From Acidimicrobiia bacterium (GTDB lineage: Bacteria; Actinomycetota; Acidimicrobiia; Acidimicrobiales; CATQHL01), in the NCBI GenBank assembly GCA_021296415.1, contig JAGWAL010000001.1, positions 16,720 to 80,719 of the forward strand: a DNA stretch of 64,000 bases, in the 5' to 3' direction. Both the position numbers and the translations under genes were made by a program. Each line of letters begins with the position of its first letter. Position 1 is the first letter of the stretch. This document shows positions 4,494 through 55,197 of the stretch, piece by piece. The notes below the pieces were generated by a model that saw only the letters and a list, made by a program, of their open reading frames with translations, had not been told where the DNA came from and did no database searches.

Positions 4494-4937
4494 TCACTTC
4501 CGCCCCGAAGGGAGGGACCGAGGAGGGAACACCCCGAAGGACGCACCCCACAGACCGATGAGACCCAAACCGTACACGCCCGCAAGAATACCGAATGCCA
4601 GCACGCCGAAGGGGCGCAACGCGGCACCCGTCAGCCCGGCGGCGAACTGCAGGCCGGTCGTGATCCGGAACTCCGCTCGCAGCGCCGGCGAGGCGCCGGG
4701 CATCTGCAGGAACGCCGCCAGGGTCGAGATCCTCTCGCTGCGACTCCGCCGCACGGCCAGCACGTACGCCCGCCCGTAGGCCGCACAGCCGGCGGCGAAC
4801 AGAACGAGTGCGGTGACCTGTGCCGCCGGCCCCGCGCCCTCGGGCCACACCACGCCGAGCGCGGTGACCGTGCAGAACACAGTTGAGCCGGTGCGGCCGG
4901 CGATCACGAGTCGCCGGCGGCGCCGTGGCAGGTTCAA
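4494..4937 (-). CDS. Small integral membrane protein, unknown function
   Basis: The 147-aa product has about 4 hydrophobic segments. Its ATG overlaps the GT4 stop (4934-4937) and its own stop abuts the SRPBCC start. No family is recognised. Confidence 0.5.
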   Translation of the reverse strand: MNLPRRRRRLVIAGRTGSTVFCTVTALGVVWPEGAGPAAQVTALVLFAAGCAAYGRAYVLAVRRSRSERISTLAAFLQMPGASPALRAEFRITTGLQFAAGLTGAALRPFGVLAFGILAGVYGLGLIGLWGASFGVFPPRSLPSGRK

Positions 4938-6094
4938 CTCAACACGTGGCGCAGGCGCCGGGCGAGGTGGTCATAGGAGAAGCCTTCCTCGGCACGTTGG
5001 CGCGCCCGGCGGCCCAGGCGCCGACGGCGCTCGGGATCATCCAGCAGCGCGGCCAGGGTGTCGGCCACCGCCTCGACATCGTCGGGATCCTCGACCACCA
5101 GACCGCCCTCGCCGTGCTCGACGGCCTCCGCCGCTCCCCCGCTGTCACCCGCCACCTGTGCGGTGCCCGCGGCGGCCGCTTCGAGGAATACGATGCCGAA
5201 CCCTTCCTGCTCGAGCCCGAACCAGCGCTTGCGGCAAAGCATGGCGAACAGGTCCGACGCCCCGTAGAGATCGGCCAGAGCATCCTCGCCGACCCGGCCG
5301 AGGAGTCGCGCGGGTGCCCCGGTGCGCCGCACGAGCGCCTCCAGGCGCCCGGCGTCCCGCCCGGTCCCGGCAATGAGGAGGCGCAAACCCGGCCGCGCCG
5401 GGGCCAGCCGGGCCACGGCCTCGATCAGCCGGTCCATGCCCTTGCGGGGAACCAGCCGGCTGACGCTCAGCACCAGGACCTCCTCGTCGGTCACACCGAG
5501 CCGCCGGCGCACCTGCCGGCGCTGTGCGCCGTCCAGCGGCACGAAGCGCCGTGTGTCGACGCCGGGTGGGACGTAGTCGTCGGGAACCATCGCCGGGCAG
5601 AGGCGGCGCGCCTCGCCGGCGGCGTAGCCGCTGGCGGAGATCACGATCTCCGCCCCCGCCAGGGTTCGCCGCAGCAGCGCGGCAACGCCCGGCAGGCGCG
5701 CCGGCACCGTCACCTCCGCCCCGTGCAGGACGACCCCGTAGGGAACGTCGAGGCGGGGTCCCAGGGCGCCCACGGGCACGGCCGGATCGAAGACCACCAG
5801 TTCCGCGGCGGTCGACGCCAGCAACTCGCGGATCTCGGCCAGCACCTTCGGCACGGGCAGCAGGAAGGGCACCGCGCTCCGCACGATGGGGTAGTCCTCG
5901 CCGACGTCGAACGCCCCGGCCTGGGGATGGGGGCGGGTGAGCACGCAGAAGCGATCCGCCGGGAGCCGCCTCCAGAGTTCCCACAGGTAGTTCTGGATCC
6001 CGCCAACCTTCGGCGGGAAGTCGTTGGTGACCAGGAGATGCCGTCGAACCTGTGCCTCACCGGAGCCGGTGGGCCCCGCAGCCGGGCTGCTCAC
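4934..6094 (-). CDS. Glycosyltransferase family 4 (PimB-like GT-B)
   Basis: The N-terminus reads LLVTNDFPPKVGGIQNYLWEL and the C-terminal region reads EGFGIVFLEAAAAG (the E-x7-E area). The start overlaps the queG stop. Confidence 0.8.
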   Translation of the reverse strand: MSSPAAGPTGSGEAQVRRHLLVTNDFPPKVGGIQNYLWELWRRLPADRFCVLTRPHPQAGAFDVGEDYPIVRSAVPFLLPVPKVLAEIRELLASTAAELVVFDPAVPVGALGPRLDVPYGVVLHGAEVTVPARLPGVAALLRRTLAGAEIVISASGYAAGEARRLCPAMVPDDYVPPGVDTRRFVPLDGAQRRQVRRRLGVTDEEVLVLSVSRLVPRKGMDRLIEAVARLAPARPGLRLLIAGTGRDAGRLEALVRRTGAPARLLGRVGEDALADLYGASDLFAMLCRKRWFGLEQEGFGIVFLEAAAAGTAQVAGDSGGAAEAVEHGEGGLVVEDPDDVEAVADTLAALLDDPERRRRLGRRARQRAEEGFSYDHLARRLRHVLS

Positions 6095-7299
6095 TGCTCC
6101 GGCCCTGCGGTACCGACGGCGTCGCCAGGTTCGTCGGGGAGGCCGTCCCGCCGTTCATGCCGGCCGAGGCCGGAATCCACGTCGAGCCCCAGGCGCTGCG
6201 CCGCCCAGGCGGCGTGGCGCGCCAGCATCGCATCGGAATGCTGCTGGTAGCAGCGCACCGTGTCGATGACCGTCGGGTCCGATCCGTCGGCGACGTTGCC
6301 CAGCACGATCAGCGCGTTGCGACGCAGGTAGCGCGGATCGCGCGCCGGGACGTACCAGCGGCCGTGGCGCGCCATCAACTCGTCGTCACCGGCCGCCAGC
6401 AGGTCGAGGACGTCGACGGACGCCTGCTCCCCGGGCCGTGCCGCTTCGCCGGCGCCCCGGTTGGGCGGGCACACCTCCTGGCAGTCGTCGCAGCCGTAGA
6501 GCCGGTCGCCGAGGGCCGTGCGGTACTCCTCCGGGAAGTCGCCCCTGGCCTGCAGGAGCCACGCCAGGCAGCGGCGCGCGTCGACCACCCCGGGGGCGAC
6601 GATGGCAGCCGTCGGGCAGCCGTCCAGGCAGCGCCGGCACGGTCCGCACCCGTCGGGCACGCGCTCGGCGGCGGGCCGGAGCGGTGCGTCGGTCACCACC
6701 GAACCCAGCACGAACCAACTCCCCGCCCCAGCCAGCAGCAGGTTGCTGTTCTTGCCGTAGTGGCCCAGGCCGGCCCGGTAGGCGGCCTCGCGGTCCACGA
6801 GCGCGTTGTCATCGGCGACCACGACCGCCCGGTGGCCCCGCTCGATCAGCAGCCGCGCCACGACCGCCAGGGCGCTCCGGAGTTCCCCGTAGACATCGCC
6901 GGTGGCATAGCGGGCCACACGCGCCGTCGGGCGCCCGTCGCGGCCATCCGGCGCGGCCGGCTGCGCGTAGCCGAGGGCACCCACCACCAGAGCCGCCGAG
7001 CCGGGGAGGATCCGCGCCGGATCGGTGGAGCGCTCCGGATTCCGGTAGGTGAACTGCATGCCACCGTGGAGGCCCTCCGCCTTGCGCTCGAAGAGGAAGC
7101 TCCGCGTATCCTCGAACCGCTCCACCGCGGCAACACCGACGGCGGCCAGGCCCGCCCGCCGTCCGGCCTCCAGGACATCGCGTCGCAAGAGCCCGGGCGG
7201 CATCTCCCGCGCCGGCCCGCTCCCATTCCCACGGGGCACGACTCGCACCGGGGTCGGCCGCAGCGGGCCGCCGTGTCGCTCGATGCGTCCGGCCGGCAC
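6091..7299 (-). CDS. queG: tRNA epoxyqueuosine(34) reductase
   Basis: Motifs CGPCRRCLDGCPTAAI and YGCDDCQEVCPPN are 4Fe-4S motifs, followed by a HEAT-like C-terminus. The true start may be the internal MPPGLL at about 7203. Confidence 0.85.
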   Translation of the reverse strand: MPAGRIERHGGPLRPTPVRVVPRGNGSGPAREMPPGLLRRDVLEAGRRAGLAAVGVAAVERFEDTRSFLFERKAEGLHGGMQFTYRNPERSTDPARILPGSAALVVGALGYAQPAAPDGRDGRPTARVARYATGDVYGELRSALAVVARLLIERGHRAVVVADDNALVDREAAYRAGLGHYGKNSNLLLAGAGSWFVLGSVVTDAPLRPAAERVPDGCGPCRRCLDGCPTAAIVAPGVVDARRCLAWLLQARGDFPEEYRTALGDRLYGCDDCQEVCPPNRGAGEAARPGEQASVDVLDLLAAGDDELMARHGRWYVPARDPRYLRRNALIVLGNVADGSDPTVIDTVRCYQQHSDAMLARHAAWAAQRLGLDVDSGLGRHERRDGLPDEPGDAVGTAGPEQ

Positions 7300-7342: not shown

Positions 7343-10300
7343 CTACTCGGAGACCCCCCGGGAGGGTGTCAGGTGCAGCCGGGCTCGACGCCGCTGCTCG
7401 TAGAGACCGAGTGCGTGGAGGGGGAAGTACTGTCGATACAGGGCGTAGTCCACCAGCGCCGTGCGGAAGAACAAGCCGGCCATGTCCTGTTTGGGCCATT
7501 GCCCATCCTCGTCCTGGGTGTCGAGCAGGAACCGGGCGCCCTGCGTGATCGCCGTCCAGTTCGAATCGTCCGCCTCGAGCAGAGCGAGCATCGCCCAGGC
7601 GGTCTGGACGACCTGGCTCTCCTCGTGCTCGACGTAGCGGCCGGCCCGGCAGCCGCTGTGGTGCTCGCCCCATCCCCCGTCGGGCCGCTGGCGATCCAGC
7701 AGCCACCGGCACGCCAGACGCAGCGCCGGATCGCCGGGACCGGCCCCGGCGGCAAGCAGGCCCCTGACCCCGAAGAAGGTGCCATAGATGAACTGAACGC
7801 CCCACGCGCCGCGCCACGACCCGTCGGTCTCCTGGGTCCGGCGAAGCCAGGCGCCGGCTTGTGAGACCGCGCTCAGCACCTCCGGATCGGCGAGTTCCGG
7901 GGCGTGTTCCCGACAGGCACTCAACGCGGCGAGACACGAGGCGGTGCACTCGACGTAGGAACGCTCGGTCATCGAGTCGCCGAACATCTCGGCCGGATTC
8001 AGCCACTCGAGGCCAACCGCGGAGCGTCGTGCCTCATAGCTGCCGAACCCGCCGTCGCGGTTCTGACCACGCAACATGAAACGAACCGCATCGCCGAGCA
8101 CCGCCGTGCTCGTGGCCTCGCGGTCGGCGGCGAGCATTCCCAGCACCGCTTCCGCCGTGCAGTCGGTCACCGGCCAGCCATGCCACTTCCCCGCCAGGCA
8201 CCAGCCGCCTCTGGGATCGGTCCGGTGAGCCTCGCCGAATCCGTCGAAGCTGGCGCCGATCTGCTCGCGGCGCACGAAGTCGGCGCCGCGTCGCAGTGCG
8301 GTGCCGACGCCGTCGAGCTCCGGCACGGTCGCCAGCGCCTGCAGGGAAAACCCGGAGTCCCACACGGCGCTTCTCGCTCCGGTGAGGCGTGTTCCGCCCG
8401 CCTCGTCCTCCCAGATCCAGCCCTCCAGGCGCGCCAGAGCCTGCCGGCAGTCGGCGTCGTCGGGGTCGCGCAGCCACAGGGCGAGGATGTTGAGGAGACC
8501 GCTGACCGGGGAGATGCTCCGATGGGTGGTGGCTTTCAGTTCCCACCTGATGTGCCGGATGATCTCCTCGGTACACCGGGCGCGCCGCCGCTTGCCACCG
8601 AACCGGTCGTACAACAGCGCGAGCCCGTAGCCTGCTCGGAGCCACACCCCGGGCCGGGCGAAGAGGTCGCCGTCCCGCAGGCGATTGCGACCCGACGAGA
8701 ACTTCACGTTGGCAAACCCCTGTGGGAACAGTTCCTCCCGTATGGAGGCCACCGCGGGCATCACGGGGGCCTGGAAACGGAGCGGCTGGATGGCCGCCAT
8801 CGCCATGTAGATGAGCCGGGTATGGCAGTACCACTTCGAAGGATGCAACGGCAACCAGCGCGGCAGGCCCCACAGTTCGGGTAGGACGGCGTTCACCCCG
8901 CGCCAGTCGTAGAGGCCAACGAGCGCCAGCCAGAATTTCCCCCAGCTCGGGATGCCGAGGACACCCTCTGCCTGCAGGAATCGCCGCGCCGGCTGGACCA
9001 ACGGGTCGTCTCGCTCGACACCGAGCAGTCTCGCCGCAACGTAGACCAGGGTCGTGACGAACAGGTGGGGTTGTGCGTGCTCGTGCAAGCCCCACAGGCC
9101 TCCTTCGAGGCGGGATTGCTCGAAGTAGCGCAGCACCCGCCGACGCCGGCCGGGATCGAGCGGACGATCGACGATGTGGTGCAGCAGCACGTACTGCGCG
9201 GTGAGCATGGGGCACCACACCATCTCGCCCTCCCAGGCACCGTCAACACCCTGGAGACTCACGAGGCGCGTGCTGGCGCTCCGCAGTGCGGGGCCGGCGT
9301 CGGGTGACGCAGCCTCCTCCGGACGGCTGAGCCGGCGGTTGCCGGCTCTCGATGGTATGGAGATCAGGAGCGCGCGGGCCAAGGTGTCCCGAACTTGCTC
9401 GTCATTCCGTCCATCGGTGTTTCGCGCCTTGCGCAACTGCCGCAACCCGCGGAGGAGCCATCCGATGCGAAACACGAGCGCACGCACGATGTCGCGGGCC
9501 CGACGCCAGGCGGTTTGGTCGCAGGATCTCGGAATCTCACCGACGATCGCCCGGGCCGCCATCGCGCTGCACGCCAGACCCAGACTGGCTATCGATGTGT
9601 CCTCACAGGCGAGCAGACGAATGGTCCGGCTGCGGACCGCGGGACTCTCCCGCCAACGCCGGTAGACCGCGTGCCTCAGCGCCACGGACTCCACCCGATG
9701 ATCCGCGAAGACCTCGTACAGCCCCATGGCGAGGAGTTCCGGCGCACGGGTCGCCTGGCAACGCCGGTTGGTGAAGTCGCGAAAGTCCCTTCCTTCGGCC
9801 AGTGCCAGCGCATCGCCGAAACCGAGGGTCATCCCCACCGCCGTCAGCGGGTGGTAGTGCCCGGCCGCATCCCCGATGAGAACCCGCCGTGGACTCCCGT
9901 ACGTGGCGCGCGGCCGCAGCGCGTTGGCCGCGGCGAGGAATCTCCGCTCCCGCAGCGCGTCGACGAACGCAGGCGCGAGCGATTCCGGCATCCAGCCCGC
10001 ATACGAGTCCGACATCACGGCAAACAGGTCCTGCGCCGAGTACCCCAAGGGGACGTCGACTATGACCCGAACGGCATCCTCCCCCAGGCGATAGATGAGA
10101 ATCGGGCCCGGTCCCCCGCAGACCACGTGCCCGTAACCCTCCAGCGGCAGGTTCACTCCATGCAGTGCGATCCCCATCATCCGCGAGCAGTTCCGGGGAC
10201 TCGTCCACAGACCCAATGATCGACGCACGATCGAGGTCCGGCCGTCCGCGCCGACGATCAGCGCGGCCTCGAGGGATTCATCGGCGCCGTTGCGGGTGAA

Positions 10301-10717
10301 CGTGACACGGTGGTCCTCAACCGCCCGCACACGCGCCTCGAGCATGAAGTCGACGCCCGGCTCGGCCTCGACGGCTTCGCGCAGACGCGAGACCAACACC
10401 TCGTGCTCGCAGACCAACCCGTGGGATCCGTCCGGATAAGGGAGCACGATCGGCTCCGACCGGTCTTCCGGGAACACCGCGAATCCCTTGCCCGTGGCGC
10501 TCCGCGGCTGGGTGTCGAGCTCGATCCCGAAGTCGCCGAGTATCCGCAGGGCGGGGGGATGCAGCCACTCGCCGGCGAGTCGTTTGGAGGCATTCGGGCT
10601 TGCCTCGAGCAGAGCCACCGAGGCACCTCGACGCGCGTGCGCGAGCGCGCAAAGGCTGCCCACCGGACCCGCGCCGACGACGGCGATGTCGTACCTCCGG
10701 GCAGTGGCGCCGCTCAT
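7343..10717 (-). CDS. Fused squalene monooxygenase (epoxidase) - oxidosqualene cyclase
   Basis: The N-terminal half has the FAD fold motif YDIAVVGAGPVGS and the squalene-epoxidase signature LIGDAAGHYHPLTAVGMTLGFGDA. The C-terminal half is a class II triterpene cyclase (WGKFWLA, LHPSKWYCHTRLIY, GWPVTDCTAEAV, YVECTAS, DGSWRGAWGVQFIYGTFFG, DGGWGE). There is no stop or frame change between the halves. The start is set at ATG 10717 because the longer track ORF overlaps trpD. Confidence 0.85.
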   Translation of the reverse strand: MSGATARRYDIAVVGAGPVGSLCALAHARRGASVALLEASPNASKRLAGEWLHPPALRILGDFGIELDTQPRSATGKGFAVFPEDRSEPIVLPYPDGSHGLVCEHEVLVSRLREAVEAEPGVDFMLEARVRAVEDHRVTFTRNGADESLEAALIVGADGRTSIVRRSLGLWTSPRNCSRMMGIALHGVNLPLEGYGHVVCGGPGPILIYRLGEDAVRVIVDVPLGYSAQDLFAVMSDSYAGWMPESLAPAFVDALRERRFLAAANALRPRATYGSPRRVLIGDAAGHYHPLTAVGMTLGFGDALALAEGRDFRDFTNRRCQATRAPELLAMGLYEVFADHRVESVALRHAVYRRWRESPAVRSRTIRLLACEDTSIASLGLACSAMAARAIVGEIPRSCDQTAWRRARDIVRALVFRIGWLLRGLRQLRKARNTDGRNDEQVRDTLARALLISIPSRAGNRRLSRPEEAASPDAGPALRSASTRLVSLQGVDGAWEGEMVWCPMLTAQYVLLHHIVDRPLDPGRRRRVLRYFEQSRLEGGLWGLHEHAQPHLFVTTLVYVAARLLGVERDDPLVQPARRFLQAEGVLGIPSWGKFWLALVGLYDWRGVNAVLPELWGLPRWLPLHPSKWYCHTRLIYMAMAAIQPLRFQAPVMPAVASIREELFPQGFANVKFSSGRNRLRDGDLFARPGVWLRAGYGLALLYDRFGGKRRRARCTEEIIRHIRWELKATTHRSISPVSGLLNILALWLRDPDDADCRQALARLEGWIWEDEAGGTRLTGARSAVWDSGFSLQALATVPELDGVGTALRRGADFVRREQIGASFDGFGEAHRTDPRGGWCLAGKWHGWPVTDCTAEAVLGMLAADREATSTAVLGDAVRFMLRGQNRDGGFGSYEARRSAVGLEWLNPAEMFGDSMTERSYVECTASCLAALSACREHAPELADPEVLSAVSQAGAWLRRTQETDGSWRGAWGVQFIYGTFFGVRGLLAAGAGPGDPALRLACRWLLDRQRPDGGWGEHHSGCRAGRYVEHEESQVVQTAWAMLALLEADDSNWTAITQGARFLLDTQDEDGQWPKQDMAGLFFRTALVDYALYRQYFPLHALGLYEQRRRARLHLTPSRGVSE

Positions 10718-10824
10718 CGGAACAGGCTCGTCTGCCAGCGGCGGCGGCAACGGAGCCGACCTGGTTCCCGGGGACTGGTCATCCGGCCACCGTAGTTCGG
10801 ACCAGGAAAGCGGTCTTCTCCGGA

Positions 10825-11898
10825 TCAGCGACGGTCGGCGAGGCGGTGGGACACTTCCACCCACTGGGCGAGAGTGTCCGCCGCGGCGCCTCGGTCCAGC
10901 GCGGCGGCTGCGAGACTCAGACCCTCGTCCAGATCGGCCGCCAGGTCCCCGACCACAAGCCCGGCGGCTGCATTGAGACACACGATGCCGCGCCACGGCA
11001 CCGGCTCACCGGCCAGCAGCGCGTGGGTCGCCGCGACGCCCGCGGCCACGTCCGCGCCGGCGAGGTCGGACAACTCGACCGTCGGCAGGCCGAGGTCGGC
11101 CGGCGAGACCACATAGCGCTCGATCCTGCCCTCCTTCAGTTCGATGACCCGCGTCGGCCCGATCGTCGACAGCTCGTCGAGGCCGGGGTGGCCGTGGACG
11201 ACCATGGCACGCTGCGTACCGGTGACCGCCAGAACCTCGGCCATCCGCTCGGCCATGGCCGGATCGTTCACACCGATTACCTGGCGTCGCACACCGGCGG
11301 GGTTGGCCATCGGGCCCAGGTAGTTGAATGCGGTCGGCACGCCCAGGCTGCGCCGGGTGGGACCGGCGTGGCGGAGCGCGGGATGGAACAGCGGGGCCAG
11401 GCAGAAGGCGATGCCCGCCTGCTCGAGGCAGCCCGCCACACCGTCGGGCCCCAGGTCGACCGCGATCCCGAGCGCCTCCAGCAGATCAGCCGAACCGCAC
11501 GACGACGAGACCGCCCGGTTGCCGTGCTTGCACACGCGGGCGCCCGCGCCCGCAGCCACCAGCGCGGCCATGGTCGAGATGTTCAGGGAACCGCTGCCGT
11601 CGCCTCCGGTACCGGCCGTGTCGATGAGGCCCATCTCCTCGGCGTCCACTCGCACGTCGAGCGCCGCGGCACGCAGCCCCTCCAGGAGTCCCGCCAGCTC
11701 GACGGCGGTCTCGCCCTTTGTCCGCAGGGCCATGAGCAGCCCGCCCATCTGAGCCTCGGAGGCCGATCCGGCGAGCATGGCGTCCGCCGCCGCCCGCGCC
11801 TGGGTGCGAGAGAGGTGCTCCCCCGCGGCCAGCGTCCTGAACAGCAGCGCGAAGTCCACGGATCGCCCGGCGCCGACGTCGTCCTGATCTCCGTTCAT
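10825..11898 (-). CDS. trpD: Anthranilate phosphoribosyltransferase
   Basis: Motifs are LMALRTKGET, DTAGTGGDG and CKHGNRAVSSSCGSADLLE. The product is full length at 357 aa. Confidence 0.9.
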   Translation of the reverse strand: MNGDQDDVGAGRSVDFALLFRTLAAGEHLSRTQARAAADAMLAGSASEAQMGGLLMALRTKGETAVELAGLLEGLRAAALDVRVDAEEMGLIDTAGTGGDGSGSLNISTMAALVAAGAGARVCKHGNRAVSSSCGSADLLEALGIAVDLGPDGVAGCLEQAGIAFCLAPLFHPALRHAGPTRRSLGVPTAFNYLGPMANPAGVRRQVIGVNDPAMAERMAEVLAVTGTQRAMVVHGHPGLDELSTIGPTRVIELKEGRIERYVVSPADLGLPTVELSDLAGADVAAGVAATHALLAGEPVPWRGIVCLNAAAGLVVGDLAADLDEGLSLAAAALDRGAAADTLAQWVEVSHRLADRR

Positions 11899-13835: not shown

Positions 13836-14183
<348 letters not shown>

Positions 14184-14184
14184 G

Positions 14185-14679
14185 TCACCGGGCACGGCGC
14201 GGGCGCGACGCTGGCTCCAGCCGGCCGCGGCGCGCCAAGACCCGCCGACGCGCCGGGTCGGCGAGCCCGAATCGTCGCCAGGACCACCAGATCGCAACCG
14301 CCCCGGCGAACTCCATGGCCAGCACCGCCCACAGCGGGCGCAGGCTCACCGAGACCGCCTCGCCGGCCGCTACGCCGGCCAGCGGCCACCAGAAGGACGC
14401 CGGGCGCAGCCAGGCACCGTCCAGGATGAGGTGGCAGAAGAGCCCGATCGGGAACCCCAGCAGGCGTCGCTGGACGAGGCGCCGCCCCCATCCAACGATC
14501 ATGGCGCCGGCGAGGACGGCGATCGGGAACAGCAGGGTCCCCATGACCCACAGGCCGTCGACCGCAAGCGCCAGGGACGGGAGGACGGCTCCGGCGATCA
14601 CCAAGCGGTAGTCCAGGGCGCGGCTTGCGAAGGTAGCCGCCACGGCCGGCACCGTCAGGCCGGCGAACCAGAGCAGCAC
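14185..14679 (-). CDS. Integral membrane protein (possibly YdjM/DUF457-like)
   Basis: The GTG at 14679 lies just after the upstream gene's stop. The 164-aa product is highly hydrophobic and has an HLILD motif. The longer track ORF overlaps the upstream gene and is rejected. Confidence 0.45.
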   Translation of the reverse strand: MLLWFAGLTVPAVAATFASRALDYRLVIAGAVLPSLALAVDGLWVMGTLLFPIAVLAGAMIVGWGRRLVQRRLLGFPIGLFCHLILDGAWLRPASFWWPLAGVAAGEAVSVSLRPLWAVLAMEFAGAVAIWWSWRRFGLADPARRRVLARRGRLEPASRPRRAR

Positions 14680-15940: not shown

Positions 15941-16015
15941 TGGGCGCTGGCGGACTCGAACCGCCGACCCCTTCCTTGTAAGGGAAGTGCTCTGACCCGA
16001 CTGAGCTAAGCGCCC
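15941..16015 (-). tRNA. tRNA-Val (anticodon TAC)
   Basis: The reverse complement reads GGGCGCTTAGCTCAGTCGGTCAGAGCACTTCCCTTACAAGGAAG...GGTTCGAGTCCGCCAGCGCCCA. It forms a cloverleaf with anticodon loop CTTACAA. Confidence 0.9.
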
Positions 16016-16027
16016 CGCGACCGCAGG

Positions 16028-16840
16028 CTAGCCAGCCCAGGCCGCCCGCAGGTCGGCCAGCAGGCGCTCGCCGGCCGCAGCGAGCAGGGTGCGCCGCTGC
16101 AGGGGATCGGTCGTCGTCAGATCCCGGCCGGCGGCATCGACCACCGCGGCACCGGCCTCCCGGCAGACCAGCATCGCCCCCAGATAGTCCCACGGGCCCA
16201 GCGAGTGGCAGTCCGCGAAACCGTCGAGGCGACCGTCGGCGACGGCGCAGAGATCCAGCGCCGCGGCCCCCAGTGCCCGGTACTGGCGCCACCGCGGCGC
16301 GCGCGGCCACCAGCCCGACAACCCGAGAATCGCCTCGGACAGCTCGGTTACCGCCGACGGGCGGATCGGTTCGCCGTCCCGGTGGGCACCGCCGCCGCGG
16401 GTCGCCGCGTAGCGCTCGCCCGAGGCCAGGTTCACCACCAGGGCCGCCAGGGCACCGTGGTCGTCCACCGCGCAGAGGCTCGTGGCGTACCACGGGATTC
16501 CCTGGGCCGCGTTGGTCGAACCGTCCAGGGGGTCGAGAACGACGATGATCGAGCGGTCCGGTGCCTGCAGGCCGGACTCCTCGCTGCACACCCCCAGGCC
16601 GGCATCCAGCAGAGCGTTCGTGGCGACCCGATCAGCGGCGAGATCCGAGTGGTGCTGGCCGAGCCTGGTGCCGGCCAACCCCCAGTCGTCGAGGTCGTTC
16701 AGGGCACCGGCCACCGCGTCGGCGGTATCCGCGAACAGCGACAGCAGATCGTCGGGCGAGATGTGCGACACGCTAGGGCTAGGGTTGTCCCCGTCAAATG
16801 GCAGGAGGGCCCCAACGCCGAGGAGTTGCGCCTTGTCCAT
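16028..16840 (-). CDS. Inositol monophosphatase family protein
   Basis: Motifs are VVLDPLDGSTNA and WDYLGAMLVCREAG. The start is taken at MDKAQLLG (16840), with an alternative at 16873. Confidence 0.8.
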   Translation of the reverse strand: MDKAQLLGVGALLPFDGDNPSPSVSHISPDDLLSLFADTADAVAGALNDLDDWGLAGTRLGQHHSDLAADRVATNALLDAGLGVCSEESGLQAPDRSIIVVLDPLDGSTNAAQGIPWYATSLCAVDDHGALAALVVNLASGERYAATRGGGAHRDGEPIRPSAVTELSEAILGLSGWWPRAPRWRQYRALGAAALDLCAVADGRLDGFADCHSLGPWDYLGAMLVCREAGAAVVDAAGRDLTTTDPLQRRTLLAAAGERLLADLRAAWAG

Positions 16841-17396
16841 CGTCGACTTTCCCGGGTTCGTCACCGATCTCAAGTACCACGCCGCCGAGGGCGGGTTCCA
16901 CTACCACGAGGACCATCACTGCATCGACATCACGACCGGACGCCAGTGGTGGGAGATCCAGTTGCATCCGGACTACGACTGCGACGGGCCGCTGGAACTT
17001 CACATCGTCGCCGACCTGGACCCGCGTACCCAGATCGCCTTCGAGGACGAGGTCAACAAGCTGCCGGAGGATGCCGAGTGGCCCACCGAGGGGTTCGACC
17101 TGATCCTCCGCTTCCACTGGAGGCTCCCGCCGCTGCCGAACAGTCCCAACCTGCTGGAGCTGGCCACGGAACTCTCGGCAATCGGCGGCACAGATCTCCC
17201 GCTTCACGTCTGGGCCGCTGACACCATCGCCACGGTCACCGACGACGTGGCGCGGACGGTTCACGTGGAATCGGAGTCGGGCATCCCGCTGGCACAACTC
17301 GCCGGTGAGCACGAGTTCCTCGACGAGACGTTCGGCCTCATCGGCAAGGTCACCCGCTACCTGCACGACCGGGCGCCCGCCTGGTTGGGCGAGTGA
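16833..17396 (+). CDS. Acidic hypothetical protein
   Basis: Codon usage is coherent from about LSIVDFPGFVTDLKYH onward. The upstream part of the track ORF is antisense to the IMPase gene. The start is uncertain (TTG 16833 or ATG 16761). No family is recognised. Confidence 0.45.
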   Translation: MSIVDFPGFVTDLKYHAAEGGFHYHEDHHCIDITTGRQWWEIQLHPDYDCDGPLELHIVADLDPRTQIAFEDEVNKLPEDAEWPTEGFDLILRFHWRLPPLPNSPNLLELATELSAIGGTDLPLHVWAADTIATVTDDVARTVHVESESGIPLAQLAGEHEFLDETFGLIGKVTRYLHDRAPAWLGE

Positions 17397-17444: not shown

Positions 17445-17517
17445 TGGGCTCGGTGGGGATCGAACCCACGACCAAACGATTATGAGTCGTCTGCTCTGAC
17501 CACTGAGCTACGAGCCC
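17445..17517 (-). tRNA. tRNA-Met (anticodon CAT)
   Basis: The reverse complement reads GGGCTCGTAGCTCAGTGGTCAGAGCAGACGACTCATAATCGTTTGGTCGTGGGTTCGATCCCCACCGAGCCCA. I cannot tell elongator, initiator or Ile2 type apart by eye. Confidence 0.9.
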
Positions 17518-17601: not shown

Positions 17602-17674
17602 CTCCGGGGGTGGGGCTCGAACCCACGACAAACGGCTTAACAGGCCGGCGCTCTGCCAACTGAGCTACCCCGGA
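17602..17674 (-). tRNA. tRNA-Asn (anticodon GTT)
   Basis: The reverse complement reads TCCGGGGTAGCTCAGTTGGCAGAGCGCCGGCCTGTTAAGCCGTTTGTCGTGGGTTCGAGCCCCACCCCCGGAG. The anticodon loop is CTGTTAA. Confidence 0.9.
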
Positions 17675-35044: not shown

Positions 35045-37429
35045 TCAGGCTGTCGAATGCGCGCGCAGTAGTTCGCGGAGGCGCGACGGGCTGAGGTTGG
35101 CCTGTGTGATCGGCACGCCAAGCGGCGCCAAGGCGTCGTGCACGGCCGCGGCGAGCGCCGCCGGCGTCACGATGATGGCCCCCTCGCCGGCACCGCGGAA
35201 GCCGCCGATCAACTCCGAGGGCGTCTCCCGGTGCACGATGCGCGGCCGAACCACATCACCGAAGGCGGGGATCATGTAGTCCAGGAGCGTCGAGGTCTGC
35301 GGCTGACCGTTCTCGTCGTAGTGGATCTCCTCGAAGAACGTCTGCCCCACCGCCTGCGCGACCGCGCCGTGGATCTGCCCGTCCAGCAGCACGCGGTCGA
35401 TCACGGTCCCGCAATCGTGCACGATGGTGAGGTCGCTCACCGTCACGACCCCGGTCGCCGGGTCGACCTCGACGACAGCGGCTGCGGCGGCCGTGGAATA
35501 GGTGGCGGCCACGTTGAGCTTGCCGCGCTCATCGGGGAAGGGGCTGGTGTTGCCCGGGTCGTAACCCACCACGACCGACAATCCCGGATCCATGCCCGGC
35601 GGAAGCAGGAAGGTGTGGAGATAGGCCGCGGCGGCGATCTGCCCGAACGGGATCGCCGCCTCCCCCAGGCGGAAGAAGCCGTCGCTCGCCTCGATCTGAT
35701 CGGCGGGCGCTTCCAGCAACCCGGCGGCGATGGCCGCCATCTTGTCGCGCACCTGCCGGGCCGCCTTGATGACCGCTCCACCGCCCATGACCGCCGAGCG
35801 GCTCCCCCACGTGCCGATGCCGTAGGGCAGCGCGGCGGTGTCACCGTCGCTCACCGCCACGTCGTCGGGGCTGATGCCCAGCACATCGGCGGCGACTTTG
35901 GCGTAGATGGTCTCGTGGCCCTGGCCCTGGGACTTGGTGCCGACGGCCACGTTGACCCTGCCGTCGGGCTGCACGGTCAGCATGGCCATCTCGTAGCCGC
36001 CGAAGCGTCCCGCGAGGGCATGGATGTTGGGCGCCGTTGGCTCGACCATCTGGGCGATGCCCACGCCGACGAGACGGCCTTCCGCCCGTGCCTCGTCGCG
36101 GGCCCCGCAGGCGGCGTCGTAGTCCGCTGCCTCCAGCAACTCCGAGAGTTGCTCATCGAAGCTGCCGGTGTCGAGGACCGCGCCGGTCGCCGTCACGTAG
36201 GGCCGGGGCTCGTCGGGGATCATGTTCCGCCGGCGCATCGTCACCGGGTCGATGTCGAGCCTCTCCCCCACCAGGTCCAGGACCCGCTCCATGAGGAAGA
36301 TGCCCTGCGGCTGGCCGTAGCCGCGGTAGCCGCCCATCGGGCACTTGTTGGTGGCCACGCAGCGCAACTCGAAGGCGTAGTCCTGCAGGTCGTAGCAGTT
36401 CGGCACGACGCCCGTGGTGACGATCGCCGGCGCGCAGCCCAGGATGTACAACTCCGGCGACCCGACGTCCACGACGAAGTTGGCACGCAGCCCCAGCACC
36501 CGGCCGTCATTGCGGTAGGCCACCTCCACCTCGTGGACCTGTTCGCGGGAGTGCAGGCCGGCGAGGAGGTTCTCCGTGCGGTCCTGCTGCCAGACCACGG
36601 GATGGCGCACCCGCATTGCGAGCACCGCCACCAGCGCCTCCTCGCGCATGAAGTGCGCCTTGTTCCCGAAGCCCCCTCCCATGTCCGGTGCGACGACGCG
36701 AATCTTGGCCTCGCTCAGCCCCGTTATGTCCGAGATCACCGTGCGCAGCGTGTGCGGGACCTGCGTCGACACGTGCATCTCCAGGCGTCCCGTCGACGGG
36801 TCGAACTCGCCGAGCGCGCCGTGGCCCTCCATTGGTAGGCCGGAGACGCGGTGATGCGTGAACCGCTCCCGGAGCTCCCCGTCGGCGTCGGCGAACGCCG
36901 CCTCGACGTCGCCATGGGCGCCCGGCATGTACAGGAAGACGTTGTCGCCCCAGTCCTCGTAGAGCAGCGGGGCCTCGGCCTCCAGACCGGCCTTGGCGTC
37001 GCTGACCGCCGGCAGCTCCTCGTAGTCCACCTCGATGAGTTCGAGGGCGTCCTCGGCGATGTAACGGCTGTCGGCCACGACGGCGGCGACCGGCTCGCCC
37101 ACGAACCGGGCCTTGTCGGTGGCGAGCACCGACCAGGTGATCTGGCGCAGCGTCGGGATCATGGGGAGGTGGTGGCTGAACTCTCCGGTGTCGGCCGCCA
37201 GCTCGGCGCCGGTGAACACCCCGATCACGCCGGGCACGGTCATGGCGCCCGAGACGTCCACGTCGCGGATCCGGGCGTGGGCCAGCGGGCTGCGCAGGAT
37301 GGCGATGTGCTTGAGGTCGGGTCGCTGGACGTCACCCAGATACTCCCCCCGGCCGCACAGCAGACGCGTGTCCTCGTGACGCCGCGTGCCGGTCTGCGCG
37401 GGCGCCCGGGGCGGGGCGGCAACGCTCAC
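35045..37429 (-). CDS. Xanthine dehydrogenase/CoxL-family molybdopterin subunit
   Basis: The GTG at 37429 overlaps the small-subunit stop (GTGA). The protein has a/b-hammerhead and MoCo-binding regions, including APDMGGGFGNK. The CO-dehydrogenase active-site loop was not seen. Confidence 0.85.
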   Translation of the reverse strand: MSVAAPPRAPAQTGTRRHEDTRLLCGRGEYLGDVQRPDLKHIAILRSPLAHARIRDVDVSGAMTVPGVIGVFTGAELAADTGEFSHHLPMIPTLRQITWSVLATDKARFVGEPVAAVVADSRYIAEDALELIEVDYEELPAVSDAKAGLEAEAPLLYEDWGDNVFLYMPGAHGDVEAAFADADGELRERFTHHRVSGLPMEGHGALGEFDPSTGRLEMHVSTQVPHTLRTVISDITGLSEAKIRVVAPDMGGGFGNKAHFMREEALVAVLAMRVRHPVVWQQDRTENLLAGLHSREQVHEVEVAYRNDGRVLGLRANFVVDVGSPELYILGCAPAIVTTGVVPNCYDLQDYAFELRCVATNKCPMGGYRGYGQPQGIFLMERVLDLVGERLDIDPVTMRRRNMIPDEPRPYVTATGAVLDTGSFDEQLSELLEAADYDAACGARDEARAEGRLVGVGIAQMVEPTAPNIHALAGRFGGYEMAMLTVQPDGRVNVAVGTKSQGQGHETIYAKVAADVLGISPDDVAVSDGDTAALPYGIGTWGSRSAVMGGGAVIKAARQVRDKMAAIAAGLLEAPADQIEASDGFFRLGEAAIPFGQIAAAAYLHTFLLPPGMDPGLSVVVGYDPGNTSPFPDERGKLNVAATYSTAAAAAVVEVDPATGVVTVSDLTIVHDCGTVIDRVLLDGQIHGAVAQAVGQTFFEEIHYDENGQPQTSTLLDYMIPAFGDVVRPRIVHRETPSELIGGFRGAGEGAIIVTPAALAAAVHDALAPLGVPITQANLSPSRLRELLRAHSTA

Positions 37430-37899
37430 GACGGAGCCTCCCCCGTCCCGGCGAGGGATTCCAGCGCGCTGACGATGTTGACGTAGCCGGTGCAGCGGCA
37501 GAGGTTGCCCGACATCCACTCCTCGATCCGATCCCGGCTGGGGTGCGGGTCCGTCTCGAACAGCTCCAGCGCCGTTAGGACCATGCCTGGGGTGCAGAAG
37601 CCGCACTGCAGGCCGTGGTGCTGCGACAGGGCCTGCTGGATGGGGTGCAGCGCCCCCGGCGAGCCGACCCCCTCGATGGTGCGCACCTCGGTGCCGCTCG
37701 CCTGAACGGTGAACATGAGACACGACCGCACGCCGCTGCCGTCCACCAGGACCGTGCAGGCGCCGCAGGCTCCCTGCTCGCAGCCGGCGTGCGCCCCCTT
37801 GGCGGCCAAGCGGTCCCGCAGGGTGTCCAGCAGCAACTCGCGCGGCTCGACGTCGACTTCGGCGGACTCACCATTGAGCGAGAACCGGACGGATGTCAT
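37426..37899 (-). CDS. CoxS-type [2Fe-2S] small subunit
   Basis: The two 2Fe-2S motifs are CEQGACGACTV, and CGFCTPG...CRCTGY. Confidence 0.9.
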   Translation of the reverse strand: MTSVRFSLNGESAEVDVEPRELLLDTLRDRLAAKGAHAGCEQGACGACTVLVDGSGVRSCLMFTVQASGTEVRTIEGVGSPGALHPIQQALSQHHGLQCGFCTPGMVLTALELFETDPHPSRDRIEEWMSGNLCRCTGYVNIVSALESLAGTGEAPS

Positions 37900-37950: not shown

Positions 37951-38841
37951 TCACCCGCCGGGGTCCCGGCGCGCCGCGCCCGCCTTCTGCCATGCCCTGC
38001 GCACGGCGTCGGCGGCGAGCACGGCGGCGAGATCGCGGCGGTAGTCCTTCGAACCGTGCACGTCGCCGGGAGGATCCGACGCCGCCGCCACTCGCTTCCC
38101 CAGTTCCCGGGCTGCGCCGTCGCCCAGTTCGGACTCGCCGAGCAGGAACTCCCCCGCCGCACTGAGATCCACCGGGGTCGGGCCGAGCCCGCATCCGGCG
38201 ATTCGCAGCGACTCGCAGGTCCCGGAGGCGTCACGATGGACGATGACGGCCACACCCGCGGTTGCGAAATCACCGTGGCGGCGGACGAACTCCGAGAAGG
38301 CGCCGCCGTCGCCGTCGGTGTGGGCGGGGACCTCGACCGCGGTCAGAAGTTCGGTCGGGTCGAGGCTCGTGGTGAAGGGTCCCGCGAACAACTCGGCGGC
38401 GGGAATGGCCCGCTCGCGTCCGGTGCCGCTGGCGATCACGCGCCCGTCCAGCGCCACGAGCAGCGCCGGCAACTCGGCCACGGGATCCGCATGAGCGATG
38501 CTGCCGCCGAGCGTGCCCCGATTGCGGATGTGCACATGACCGATGAGAGCGGCGGTCTCGGCAAAGATCGGTGCCTTCTGGTGCACCAGCGGGTCGGTCT
38601 CCAGGAAGCGATGGCGGCACATGGCGCCGAATCGCAGCGTGCCGTTGCGGCCCCCGAAACCCACCAGGTCCCGCACGCCGTTCACGTCCACGAGCAGCCT
38701 CGGGCGCGCCAGGCGCAGGTTCATCAGCGGCACCAGGCTCTGCCCGCCGGCCAGTATCCGGGCGTCCTCGGTCTGGGCAAGGGCCTCGGTGGCTTCGGCG
38801 ACCGACCGGACGGCGACGTAGTCGAACCGCGGGGGCTTCAT
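37951..38841 (-). CDS. CoxM-type FAD-binding medium subunit
   Basis: MKPPRFDYVAV...ILAGGQSLVPLMNLR matches FAD_binding_5. The ATG overlaps the stop of the upstream Rieske gene (38838-38841). Confidence 0.85.
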   Translation of the reverse strand: MKPPRFDYVAVRSVAEATEALAQTEDARILAGGQSLVPLMNLRLARPRLLVDVNGVRDLVGFGGRNGTLRFGAMCRHRFLETDPLVHQKAPIFAETAALIGHVHIRNRGTLGGSIAHADPVAELPALLVALDGRVIASGTGRERAIPAAELFAGPFTTSLDPTELLTAVEVPAHTDGDGGAFSEFVRRHGDFATAGVAVIVHRDASGTCESLRIAGCGLGPTPVDLSAAGEFLLGESELGDGAARELGKRVAAASDPPGDVHGSKDYRRDLAAVLAADAVRRAWQKAGAARRDPGG

Positions 38842-40079
38842 GCCGGAACCGCTGCCAGGGCCGCACCCGCCCGACGGTCCTCATCCCGGTAGCGCGAGAC
38901 GAGCCAGGTATTGAACTGGGCGAGGACCGACTCCTGCCACGAGTACCGCCCGCGCGGGGCGAAGCGGGACCCCATCCCCCGCTGAACCGCCGTGTTGGTC
39001 GGCAGGTCCTGGTTGTTGAACAACTCCACCCCGTGGATGGCGGCCCCCAGCAGCTCGCCGAACAGGGGCACCTCCAGCGTGGACGGCGGGAAGATGTAGG
39101 CCATCGTGAGGGTGTGGGACGACTCGTTCACCGGTTGCACCGTGAACCAGAACGCCGAGTCCGGCTGGAATCCCATCAGCAGGCTGGGAGGAACGTAGGC
39201 GAACGTCATCCGCCAGCGCTCTTCCTCCGTAAGGGTCGGGATGATCGGAAAGATCGCCTTCTGGGTGGGGTTGAAGCCTCCGTCGGGAACGGTTGCTCCC
39301 ATGAACCCGTACATTGCGCCGTCGCCCTCCTCGAAGGGCGCGTACCAGGCGTTGCGCGACGGCGCGAAGTCATGGATGCCCTTGTGGAGACGATCCGGGT
39401 GATAACCCTCCATGAAGTTCTCGACCATGATCTTCCAGTTGAACGGGAGGTCCGGGACGGTCTCGGGCTCCACCGTGACCATGTCCTCGATGTGGTAGTT
39501 CGCCAGAACCTCGTCGAGTTTGCCCAGGCGGGGAGCCAGCGGCGGCGCCTCCTCGTCGAAGTTGACGAAGACGAATCCCTTCCAGAGTTCCGTCCGCAGC
39601 CGCGGCAACGCGATGCCCGAGCGGGCGAATCCCGTCGTCTGGCCCATCTCGGGTGCACCCACGAGCCTGCCGTCGAGGTCGTAGGTCCACCAGTGGTAGG
39701 GGCAGCGGAAGGTGCGACAGTTGCCGGACGTCTCCGGCGGCAGTTCGAACCACTCCGAGGGCGGCCGTTGCGCGGGCGCGGTGACGCACATGCCCCGGTG
39801 CTGGCAGACCGAGGACATCACGTTGATCTCGTTCTGCGCGCCGCGCACGACGATCAGAGGCTCCCCGGCCACCGTGATCGTGTAGAAGTCCCCCACGTTG
39901 GGGATCTGGTCGCTGCGCCCCACGCAGACCCACTCGTGACCGAAGACGGCCTCCTTCTCGAACGCGAAGAAGTCCGGATCGGCGTACACCGCCGGCGGCA
40001 GGCCGACAGCAGCGGTGAAGTCCTGCGCCGATGCATCCATGCTCTCCAGCGGAATGGGGCAGCGGCAGTGTGTCGACAC
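38838..40079 (-). CDS. Rieske non-heme iron oxygenase alpha subunit (paralog A)
   Basis: The Rieske ligands are CQH...CPYH. The catalytic domain has NWKIMVENFMEGYHPDRLH and the C-terminus has FAPRGRYSWQE. The start could be the Met at 40040. Confidence 0.85.
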   Translation of the reverse strand: MSTHCRCPIPLESMDASAQDFTAAVGLPPAVYADPDFFAFEKEAVFGHEWVCVGRSDQIPNVGDFYTITVAGEPLIVVRGAQNEINVMSSVCQHRGMCVTAPAQRPPSEWFELPPETSGNCRTFRCPYHWWTYDLDGRLVGAPEMGQTTGFARSGIALPRLRTELWKGFVFVNFDEEAPPLAPRLGKLDEVLANYHIEDMVTVEPETVPDLPFNWKIMVENFMEGYHPDRLHKGIHDFAPSRNAWYAPFEEGDGAMYGFMGATVPDGGFNPTQKAIFPIIPTLTEEERWRMTFAYVPPSLLMGFQPDSAFWFTVQPVNESSHTLTMAYIFPPSTLEVPLFGELLGAAIHGVELFNNQDLPTNTAVQRGMGSRFAPRGRYSWQESVLAQFNTWLVSRYRDEDRRAGAALAAVPA

Positions 40080-40154
40080 GAGGCACCTCCAGGTCGTTCG
40101 AAGACTTCACGTTAGTGCGCGCCACGGGAGCGGTTCCAAGGCGCTCCGCAATCG

Positions 40155-40728: not shown

Positions 40729-41892
40729 TCAAGATGGGCCGTGGGGGACTTCGCTGAGCAAGCGGAGGCCGTCGTCTGTCACGAGGAAGTTGTCCTCGAT
40801 CTTCAGCACGACGGATTCGCCGCCGATCTCGACGAACGTCTCCGGCTCCAGCGCGATCGTGGCGCCGGAGACGAGCGGCACGTCCGCGCTCATCAGATCG
40901 GGCCGATACATCGTCGGCCACTCGCAGGCTCGGAGCCCGATGCCGTGGCCGACCGCGTAGGGGGTGCGCGGATAGCCGTGCCCGCGCAGAACGGCGTTGG
41001 CAGCCTCGTGGATCCTCGATGAGCTCACGCCGGGACGGCAGAGATCCTGGGCTGCGCCGTAAGCCTCCAGGAGCACTTCGTAGCCCTTGACAACCTCGGG
41101 ATGGGGATCTCCCACGAAGGCGGTTCGGCAGATGTCGGACGCGTATCCCCCTTGTCCATAGGCACCGATGTCGAAGAAGAAGGCGTCGCCATGCCGCAAC
41201 TCCGCGCCGTTGGCGAACCAATTCCCGGTCGGTTGCCGGACGTTGCACACGGAATGCGTGAGATATTCCACGCCTTGGCGCTGCAACGACTCCATCGCCA
41301 CCGCCAAGACCTCGAAGTCCCGCATTCCGGGTGCAAGCGCCTCGATCGCTTCGGATGCCGCTATCGCATTGACGCGGCTTACCGCCTCGAGCAGTTCGAC
41401 CTCGGCTGGATGCTTCTCGACCCGGACCTCGAACATCTCGAGGGCGACGTCGAAGAATTCCACGTTCGGCAGCCGCTCCCGCAGGGCCTCGAACACCTGC
41501 CACGCGCACGTGTCCACCCCCACCCGGCGGGCGCCGGCGCGTTCGATCTGCTCGGCGAGCACGCGGGCCCACTCGGCCACGTGCATCGTGCTTGCCGACC
41601 ATGAGGGCGCCGGAACCCAGGCGCTGACGTTGGGCAGGTTCGGCAGGGGCTCGAAGACTTCCTCATCCACGAACGGCACGAAGATCAAGCTCCGGCCATC
41701 ACGGTCCACGAGTGTGGCGAACCAGTCGTGGTTCTCCGAGATCGTCATGACGCGGTAGTCCGTCACATAGCGGATGTTGTCGAAGGCCGTGAACAGCACG
41801 TGATCCAGCGCTTTGGCAGCCATCAGCGACCGGGTCCGCGCCAGCCGGTCGGCGCGCAGTGAGAGCCAGTCGATGCTCGGCCAGTCGTACAC
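40729..41892 (-). CDS. M24 family metallohydrolase (creatinase/Xaa-Pro peptidase fold)
   Basis: The N-terminus is creatinase-like. The pita-bread domain has FFFDIGAYGQGGYASDICRT, VGHGIGL, IALEPE and LKIEDN. Confidence 0.8.
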   Translation of the reverse strand: MYDWPSIDWLSLRADRLARTRSLMAAKALDHVLFTAFDNIRYVTDYRVMTISENHDWFATLVDRDGRSLIFVPFVDEEVFEPLPNLPNVSAWVPAPSWSASTMHVAEWARVLAEQIERAGARRVGVDTCAWQVFEALRERLPNVEFFDVALEMFEVRVEKHPAEVELLEAVSRVNAIAASEAIEALAPGMRDFEVLAVAMESLQRQGVEYLTHSVCNVRQPTGNWFANGAELRHGDAFFFDIGAYGQGGYASDICRTAFVGDPHPEVVKGYEVLLEAYGAAQDLCRPGVSSSRIHEAANAVLRGHGYPRTPYAVGHGIGLRACEWPTMYRPDLMSADVPLVSGATIALEPETFVEIGGESVVLKIEDNFLVTDDGLRLLSEVPHGPS

Positions 41893-41901
41893 GTGCGGGT
41901 C

Positions 41902-43131: not shown

Positions 43132-43217
43132 ACCTGAGACGCCTTTCGGACGGGGCCCGGATCGCTCGACGGCGTCGCCGTCCCCCCCGAGATTCCAGTT
43201 CCGTGCCTGCTGTTGGG

Positions 43218-43246
43218 AACGTAGCGCCGATGCATATGAGGGTCAA
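43218..43246 (-). promoter_or_regulatory. Candidate promoter TTGACC-17 nt-TACGTT upstream of Rieske paralog B
   Basis: Read on the minus strand: -35 at 43246..43241 and -10 at 43223..43218. It lies in the 160-nt gap after the ABC permease gene. This is a sequence match only. Confidence 0.3.
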
Positions 43247-44200: not shown

Positions 44201-44270
44201 CCCGGCCCCTCGGATCGCATCGGGGCACCGGCGCCGCGAGGCACTTGCTGCGGGAGGGGGACCACGGGAG

Positions 44271-51532: not shown

Positions 51533-51545
51533 GACGCTTCCTCTC

Positions 51546-51565
51546 CGGTGAGCCGCGACTCACCG
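51546..51565 (-). promoter_or_regulatory. Hairpin/palindrome CGGTGAG-N6-CTCACCG abutting the Shine-Dalgarno of Rieske paralog D
   Basis: Read directly: a 7-bp perfect stem whose 3' arm (mRNA sense) runs straight into GGAGAGGAAG. Confidence 0.35.
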
Positions 51566-55130: not shown

Positions 55131-55197
55131 CGGCGGTGGCGACAATGACGGAACCGGCGCGTCGGCAGCGATCCGCCGGCGACGGGGGCCACGGGCC

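Follow-up and report, generated by a model that had tools for sequence, protein, structure and literature searches.

The 64,000-nucleotide stretch of Acidimicrobiia contig JAGWAL010000001.1 analysed here (the window) carries a gene in which a squalene epoxidase (SE) is fused to an oxidosqualene cyclase (OSC). Its product is probably a membrane-associated, sterol-committing enzyme of the MsbE type with both activities, and the gene was acquired horizontally as the fragment of an operon. The original prediction, made from the sequence alone, was that one polypeptide joins an SE-type flavoprotein to an OSC, and the domain assignments, the structure matches and the catalytic residues all supported it. 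The fusion is already known and is common among sponge symbionts, and there is no new kind of enzyme here; the new details are modest, namely 1) the stand-alone state of the gene in Acidimicrobiales, 2) the truncation of the operon inside CYP51, 3) a displaced NYN/YacP gene and 4) continued purifying selection.

Translation bore out the earlier claim of a single unbroken 1124-codon frame, being stop-free over 1124 residues that were followed by a stop codon. The longest open reading frame (ORF) in the frame of the fusion gene reaches a GTG at 10996. The GC content at third codon positions (GC3) was 0.60-0.75 in the interval 10718-10996, a non-coding-like value as compared with ~0.83 within the fusion gene, and the same methionine, beginning the residues MSGA, is the start in 15 fused homologs, so the ATG at 10717 was taken as the start. 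A scan for promoters and terminators around the fusion gene returned no promoters and one terminator-like site, on the opposite strand.

The 90%-identity cluster of the window protein comprised 13 sequences from independent NCBI, ENA and JGI assemblies, 12 of them 1124 residues and one 1135 residues in length, on contigs of up to 1.29 Mb. There is a vanishingly small likelihood that the fusion arose through an error of sequencing or assembly and that two adjacent genes are in reality split by a stop or frameshift. It could be raised only as a prior possibility, the junction region being GC-rich and of low complexity, and it is opposed by the identical continuous frame in independent short- and long-read assemblies and in at least 80 further genomes, as well as by the junction itself, which can be aligned and is conserved in part, as in the stretch SPDAGPALRSA. 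The fusion is not an assembly error, an explanation that the independent assemblies already contradict.

The Pfam families expected of such a protein, SE (PF08491) in the first half and SQHop_cyclase_N and SQHop_cyclase_C in the second, were all present, far above threshold. FAD_binding_3 matched residues 9-307 (6e-20) and SE residues 151-371 (6e-22; 78.4 bits against a cut-off of 20.1), while the best solved-structure match of residues 10-303 was human squalene monooxygenase, SQLE (6c6n, 9.5e-24), the runner-up being a PqsL-like monooxygenase (2.6e-10). The two motifs from which the flavoprotein had been recognised, VVGAGPVGS (10655-10681) and the SE signature GDAAGHYHPLTAVGMT (9827-9874), were confirmed as residues 13-21 and 282-297, respectively. 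The FAD fingerprints were GxGxxG (G15, G17 and G20), DG (D158-G159) and GD (G282-D283), the last followed by HPLTAVGM; the GxGxxG, DG and GD/HPLT motifs were invariant in 57 fused homologs. F79, likewise invariant in the family, aligns with what we take to be the active-site Tyr195 of human SQLE, the conversion from chain to human numbering being assumed.

An AlphaFold2 (AF2) model of moderate confidence, built from 57 homologs (predicted local distance difference test, pLDDT, 69.8; predicted template modelling score, pTM, 0.48), showed two folded modules. Helices were predicted in the C-terminal region of the SE at residues 376-393, 401-431 and 438-449, and the tether, residues 430-469 (nucleotides 9311-9430), had a pLDDT below 50. 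Because the pTM was 0.48, no fixed inter-domain interface or channel was supported.

The best solved-structure match of residues 481-1109 was human lanosterol synthase, LSS (1w6k, 1.9e-126), as compared with 5e-50 for squalene-hopene cyclase. The NCBIfam OSC model TIGR03463 scored 723.7 bits against 258.8 for the hopene cyclase model TIGR01507, and the general squalene/oxidosqualene cyclase model TIGR01787 was passed (493, cut-off 322.7). The VTDCTAE motif, whose DCTAE stands where squalene-hopene cyclases have DxDD, was found as reported at 8150-8170 (residues 850-856), and the earlier assignment of the second half to the OSCs, not to the squalene-hopene cyclases, was upheld by Pfam, NCBIfam, the structure matches and the residues.

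Human LSS numbering was taken from the 1w6k alignment and mapped onto the window protein and onto fused and unfused representatives. The catalytic residues align: the catalytic acid D852 and its cysteine partners C853 and C924 correspond to human D455, C456 and C533, and the base pair H632/Y894 corresponds to H232 and Y503. The cation-stabilising aromatics W786, W972, F1083 and Y1091 were kept. V850 occupies human position 453, also a valine, and is invariant in the 57 fused homologs, so that, as read from the sequence, all of the cyclase catalytic residues examined are present, including the acid of the DCTAE motif and the lanosterol-type valine. The positions of human Y98, T381 and C449 are occupied by M499, A781 and H846, a non-eukaryotic pattern that is seen alike in the unfused bacterial OSC representatives.

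Composition, phylogeny, a relic of CYP51 and an empty site in sister lineages agree that the gene is a captured operon fragment. The GC content of the fusion gene was 0.689 and its GC3 0.83, as compared with 0.73-0.75 and 0.87-0.89 in its four neighbours. A bootstrapped neighbour-joining tree was calculated, loci L015, L023, L047 and L068 having been left out of it, as of the selection analysis below, by a motif filter (L- and P-numbers are our handles for genome loci and protein clusters). The sponge-symbiont fusions formed one family with 100% bootstrap support against the outgroup fusions, within which all 17 of the 17 Acidimicrobiia copies, none of which has the operon, formed a single nested clade (89%).

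The 107-nucleotide spacer upstream of the fusion start is the CYP51 relic, which begins right after the trpD stop and ends in an ATGA stop/start overlap with the fusion, as in the operon copies. In the frame of the operon-copy CYP51 it reads FPGPNYGGRMTSPREPGRLRCRRRWQTSLF, as compared with FPAPNYGSWVTGPETPCRLRYRRRSQANIV in L002. Within the window the tblastn E value was 5.8e-5, with the next match at 0.36; the nucleotide identity was 75/114, and 100,000 shuffles gave no score as high. Eight clade relatives (including L008-L013 and L051) have the relic as well, as does L026, from a second Acidimicrobiia subclade. The eight relatives (83-88% identity) keep most or all of the flanking genes, some of them on chromosome-scale contigs of 2-3.7 Mb; in L012 the flank was detected on the downstream queG-like/GT4 side only.

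The lineages that are nearest by trpD similarity (58-71%) have the same gene block, in which trpD is separated from the queG-like/GT4 genes by an NYN/YacP gene, and no trace of that gene was found in the window or its clade, which indicates that the fusion and the CYP51 stub replaced it in the clade ancestor. A fragment starting inside CYP51 would have been placed between trpD and the queG-like gene of this Acidimicrobiales ancestor, and the outcome would be a stand-alone fusion gene that has since been kept by purifying selection. The gene had originally been described as lying in a core region that was not an obvious island. The first part of this description stood, in that the neighbours are housekeeping genes, while the gene itself was horizontally acquired, as its GC content, the CYP51 relic, the replaced NYN/YacP gene and its nested position in the tree indicate.

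It is very improbable that the fusion is a vertically inherited core gene of the Actinomycetota. Such a gene could be expected to have what is found here, housekeeping flanks on the same strand, short spacers, no mobile-element genes and synteny that is kept across the clade. However, the low GC content relative to the neighbours, the upstream CYP51 relic and the NYN/YacP gene at the same position in sister lineages all argue for capture, and the identity of 65-78% to copies in Nitrospirota, Binatia, Proteobacteria, Chloroflexota and other phyla is far too high for vertical descent across phyla. Horizontal transfer was also inferred independently by Kelly et al. (PMC9531527).

Loci from Nitrospira, Binatia, proteobacteria and other groups have the fusion at the end of an operon with the order 3beta-HSD/SdmB - Rieske/SdmA - ERG24 - CYP51 - fusion, which was found in ~60 of 80 genome loci (tblastn table over 87 loci). 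In the operon copies the stop codon of CYP51 and the start of the fusion overlap, and between one and three sterol methyltransferase (SMT) genes lie nearby. The fusion family is likely to spread horizontally among sponge-associated bacteria, normally as the last gene of this operon. No SdmB, SdmA, ERG24, CYP51 or SMT gene was found in the 64-kb window, nor, for the eight clade relatives, within 8-10 kb, and a scan of the remaining coding-like ORFs of the window disclosed no other sterol or squalene gene.

Two further genes repeatedly adjoin the SE-OSC fusion in relatives, a GPP34-cytochrome P450 fusion (~680 residues) and an MMPL/RND transporter with a sterol-sensing domain. The pair adjoins the fusion even at loci without SdmB-SdmA-ERG24-CYP51, which suggests a sterol modification and transport module; gene pairs of similar size occur in L066 and L079. 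A conserved hypothetical protein of ~244 residues with no Pfam domain is encoded directly beside the fusion in many of the loci that have the operon, among them L002 (13375-14109), with equivalents in ~30 loci.

The predicted reaction sequence would begin in the N-terminal flavoprotein, where FAD, O2 and an external reductant would convert squalene to (3S)-2,3-oxidosqualene. In the C-terminal class II cyclase, D852, polarised by C853 and C924, would protonate the epoxide, the substrate would be folded to the protosteryl cation, and deprotonation would proceed via H632/Y894. The product is expected to be a protosterol, most probably lanosterol because the position equivalent to human V453 is a valine. 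The original phrase 'two O2-dependent steps' was imprecise, since O2 is consumed by the epoxidation alone and the cyclisation of oxidosqualene uses none. The flexible tether of ~40 residues that follows the C-terminal helices of the epoxidase would connect the two enzymes, and the fusion is likely to be of benefit through 1:1 co-expression and co-localisation at the membrane, where the lipophilic intermediate could be handed over locally; no rigid channel is indicated.

Several observations weigh against the interpretation of the gene as a captured sterol-committing enzyme, 1) the literature searched yielded no member of the fusion family that had been tested biochemically, 2) a reductase partner, a squalene synthase and the downstream sterol genes are all absent from the 64-kb window, 3) the tree was built by neighbour-joining alone, with poor support for the deep nodes, 4) the TIGR03463 score lies under the curated cut-off of 851 and 5) L841 (8195-8197) occupies the position of human F444, where the relatives have phenylalanine, a change that could alter product fidelity. 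Leucine at this position was shared with P0052, while the other fused homologs and human LSS have phenylalanine; the position is implicated in the stabilisation of ring-expansion cations.

The last two points would also fit an active enzyme whose product is not lanosterol (cycloartenol, parkeol or an arborane-type triterpenol) or whose substrate is another polyprenyl compound, such as a sponge merotriterpenoid precursor, which on balance is unlikely. A781 and H846 differ from the T381 and C449 of the eukaryotic lanosterol synthases, some bacterial OSCs are known to make unexpected products, as does the arborinol synthase cited in PMC10070321, and epoxy-meroterpenoids have been cyclised by OSCs in vitro (PMC5618424). 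However, valine versus isoleucine at position 453 was fully correlated with lanosterol versus cycloartenol in the bacteria tested (Wei et al., PMC4919349), and V850 is of the lanosterol type. Moreover, the A381/H449/V453 pattern (human numbering) is common to the window protein and the unfused bacterial OSC representatives, and the gene of the relatives shares its operon with CYP51, ERG24, SdmA/B and SMT, which act on lanosterol-type sterols.

Selection on the orphan copy was estimated as the ratio of nonsynonymous to synonymous substitutions (dN/dS) by the Nei-Gojobori method, with the window gene compared to those of seven clade relatives (dS ~0.28-0.56). The dN/dS was 0.13-0.24 in the epoxidase half, 0.18-0.24 in the cyclase half and 0.34-0.65 in the linker (residues 401-480). 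Both halves of the orphan are under purifying selection, and the values for the orphan clade agree with the omega of 0.17 of the clustered LSS genes in Kelly et al. (PMC9531527). Table S1 of that study lists two orphan-bearing Acidimicrobiia metagenome-assembled genomes (MAGs), L069 and L080, as 'CSG present: No', without the three-gene cluster, at 91% completeness.

A decaying remnant, one that lost its role when the operon was truncated and is on its way to becoming a pseudogene, would likewise have no upstream operon genes other than a CYP51 stub and no other sterol gene within the 64-kb window, and the window-specific change from phenylalanine to leucine at the human F444 position would fit such decay. 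This is nevertheless quite improbable, given that the 1124-codon frame is intact in 13 near-identical sequences and in eight more diverged clade members, that the dN/dS is low in both catalytic halves, at a dS of ~0.35-0.45, and that all of the catalytic and cofactor residues examined have been retained.

Retention of the captured gene by selection raises the tentative possibility, which we consider doubtful, that it is a stand-alone protosterol synthase that selection has long kept (dS ~0.4 within the clade), with unmodified lanosterol as the end product or with the protosterol shared with the sponge host or neighbouring symbionts. If the clade genomes are truly without CYP51, ERG24, SdmAB and SMT, lanosterol would be either the end product, as in Gemmata, which stops at protosterols, or a shared intermediate. 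A shared protosterol, if real, would amount to a division of labour in the sterol synthesis of the holobiont and would bear on which organisms make the 'sponge' sterol biomarkers.

The idea that the fusion is unusual or undescribed did not hold. Among 5.8 billion proteins searched, more than 120 clusters reached an identity of at least 69%, all of them 1091-1168 residues in length and with both domain sets. A genome scan with one genome per prokaryotic species found 478 related stretches, and the best 80 of the 478 were all full-length (residues 1 to ~1117) and 65-88% identical to the window protein. Full-length fused copies are therefore carried by at least 80 species-level genomes from ~10 phyla; the host labels among the best 80 were Acidimicrobiia, Binatia, Bryobacterales, Vicinamibacterales, Nitrospirales, Thermodesulfobacteriota, Alpha- and Gammaproteobacteria, Opitutales, Nitrospinaceae, Rhodothermales and Chloroflexota/Dehalococcoidia. 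Records with the names of sponge MAGs, such as Spongia_Bin9, Ca. Porisulfidus and the jk18x and p16x bins from Ircinia, are the source of the closest relatives and of most fused homologs. When 1.84 billion cluster representatives were searched exhaustively, there were also remoter fused clusters at 45-51% (P0121-P0126) and 40% identity (P0133 and P0134), and Pfam confirmed the fused architecture in P0121, P0122, P0125, P0126, P0133 and P0134. A different fusion was seen in P0193 (1137 residues) and P0197 (1194 residues), which have an N-terminal squalene epoxidase and a C-terminal squalene/phytoene synthase domain, with a short cyclase-like fragment between the two in P0197.

The literature searched contained no paper dedicated to the fusion, which is mentioned in PMC10070321, PMC9531527 and PMC7074536. 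The public annotation of MCE2524390.1 is just 'FAD-dependent monooxygenase' and that of a relative 'squalene--hopene cyclase', labels under which sterol potential is easily overlooked in genome surveys. Bacterial sterol synthesis is relevant to the reading of sterane fossils and to the biology of sponge symbionts, and the fused enzyme, if it functions as predicted, is where the pathway begins in a very widespread group of these symbionts. The window adds a clear evolutionary example, an operon fragment that was cut inside CYP51, captured in a housekeeping block and retained alone.

The coordinates of the gene, its neighbours and the other features are given in Table 1. The neighbours named originally, trpD, queG, GT4 and rnpB, were confirmed by Pfam hits and by the match to RNase P RNA. 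The queG-like gene is orthologous to the Fer4_16 gene of L090, with 57% identity over a match to 6181-7122, and its true start is probably internal to the ORF. Beyond trpD and the queG-like gene lie GT4, ROK, aminotransferase and PFK genes on one side and FGGY kinase, rnpB, sigma-70 and dnaG on the other.

Table 1. Positions of the fusion gene, its parts, its neighbours and other features; the locus is named where a feature lies outside the window
Feature	Position	Strand	Basis or remark
SE-OSC fusion gene, complete	7343..10717	(-)	1124 residues + stop; identical to NCBI MCE2524390.1
FAD-dependent squalene epoxidase catalytic region, residues 9-371	9605..10693	(-)	Pfam FAD_binding_3 and SE; best PDB match 6c6n
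SE C-terminal helical region, then flexible tether	9284..9604	(-)	AF2 secondary structure, pLDDT
Cyclase N-terminal (gamma) domain, residues 479-772, including H632	8402..9283	(-)	Pfam SQHop_cyclase_N, 5e-47
Cyclase C-terminal (beta) domain, residues 783-1107	7397..8371	(-)	Pfam SQHop_cyclase_C, 1e-52; human LSS alignment
Relic of the last 30 codons of CYP51 (sterol 14-demethylase)	10720..10809	(-)	16/30 residues identical to L002 CYP51 439-468
trpD (anthranilate phosphoribosyltransferase), upstream neighbour, insertion boundary	10825..11898	(-)	Pfam Glycos_transf_3, Glycos_trans_3N; synteny
queG-like 4Fe-4S (Fer4_16) protein, downstream neighbour	6091..7299	(-)	Pfam Fer4_16
GT4	4934-6094		Flanking gene
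rnpB, bacterial class A RNase P RNA	13838-14185	(+)	196.7 bits
Three tRNA genes	15941-16015, 17445-17517, 17602-17674	(-)	
NYN/YacP gene (437-599 residues)	L088 9143-10804; L089 9439-11238; L090 8447-9760		Sister Acidimicrobiales without the fusion at the site
GPP34-P450 / MMPL-RND gene pairs	L072 11430-13460, 13539-16007; L025 13464-15770; L002 2454-4745, 18960-20987		
Four paralogous Rieske/Ring_hydroxyl_A oxygenase alpha subunits	38838-40106, 41902-43242, 48526-49932, 50333-51559	(-)	
Creatinase/M24 peptidase and ABC-transporter genes	40729-41901, 43292-47134		Interleaved with the Rieske paralogues
Molybdenum hydroxylase (xanthine/CO dehydrogenase family), large and FAD subunits	35045-37867, 37951-38880	(-)	Adjoins the Rieske cluster

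The four Rieske oxygenases at 38-52 kb were considered as sterol genes and rejected, being of the Ring_hydroxyl_A type and not of the VanA_C/KshA_C type of SdmA. The GC content of the 38-54 kb stretch was 0.65-0.69 as compared with 0.70-0.75 in the rest of the window, and the stretch may have been acquired as a catabolic island, one perhaps devoted to methylated amines. Two ORFs, 16413-17396 (+) and 54840-55727 (-), had a coding-like third-position GC and no Pfam match; the latter, which overlaps a histidine-kinase gene of the other strand, is probably spurious.

In Methylococcus capsulatus, Gemmata obscuriglobus and the myxobacteria, squalene monooxygenase and OSC are encoded by separate adjacent genes, so that the same two reactions, as predicted here for one polypeptide, are carried out by two. 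The closest unfused representatives were ~50% (OSC) and 48-60% (SE) identical to the window protein. Human LSS (1w6k) and SQLE (6c6n) have their folds and catalytic machinery in common with the window protein; unlike it, they are separate enzymes of the endoplasmic reticulum, and SQLE depends on NADPH-cytochrome P450 reductase.

MsbE (Mohanty et al. 2020, Mar Drugs 18:124, PMC7074536), to which the window protein was likened by its description, also combines an FAD epoxidase at the N-terminus with a cyclase at the C-terminus that has the lanosterol-type valine, and the two probably belong to one family of sponge-symbiont genes. Along its full length the window protein shared 66-74% identity with the gammaproteobacterial copies, and P0089 (QIJ55911.1), at 70% identity, is a candidate for MsbE itself. 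The two differ in context, since msbA-F encode an oxidoreductase, a Rieske protein, a sterol reductase, a 14-demethylase, the fusion and an SMT, whereas the window copy stands alone with a CYP51 stub.

Brown et al. 2023 (PMC10070321) mentioned 'fused SMO/OSC homologs'. In Kelly et al. 2022 (PMC9531527), 115 of 537 sponge MAGs, from 10 phyla, had ERG24-CYP51-LSS clusters; an LSS codon alignment of 3765 nucleotides, purifying selection and horizontal transfer were also reported. The 3.7-kb 'LSS/ERG7' of these Ircinia symbiont steroid clusters is of the same gene family as the window gene, and several of the loci used here are MAGs from that study (the jk18x and p16x bins). In both papers the gene was treated as LSS or the epoxidase half was trimmed, and the clustered state was in focus; the window copy is set apart from the clustered genes described there by standing alone in Acidimicrobiia, by the relic of CYP51 and by the replacement of an NYN/YacP gene, none of which appears in either paper.

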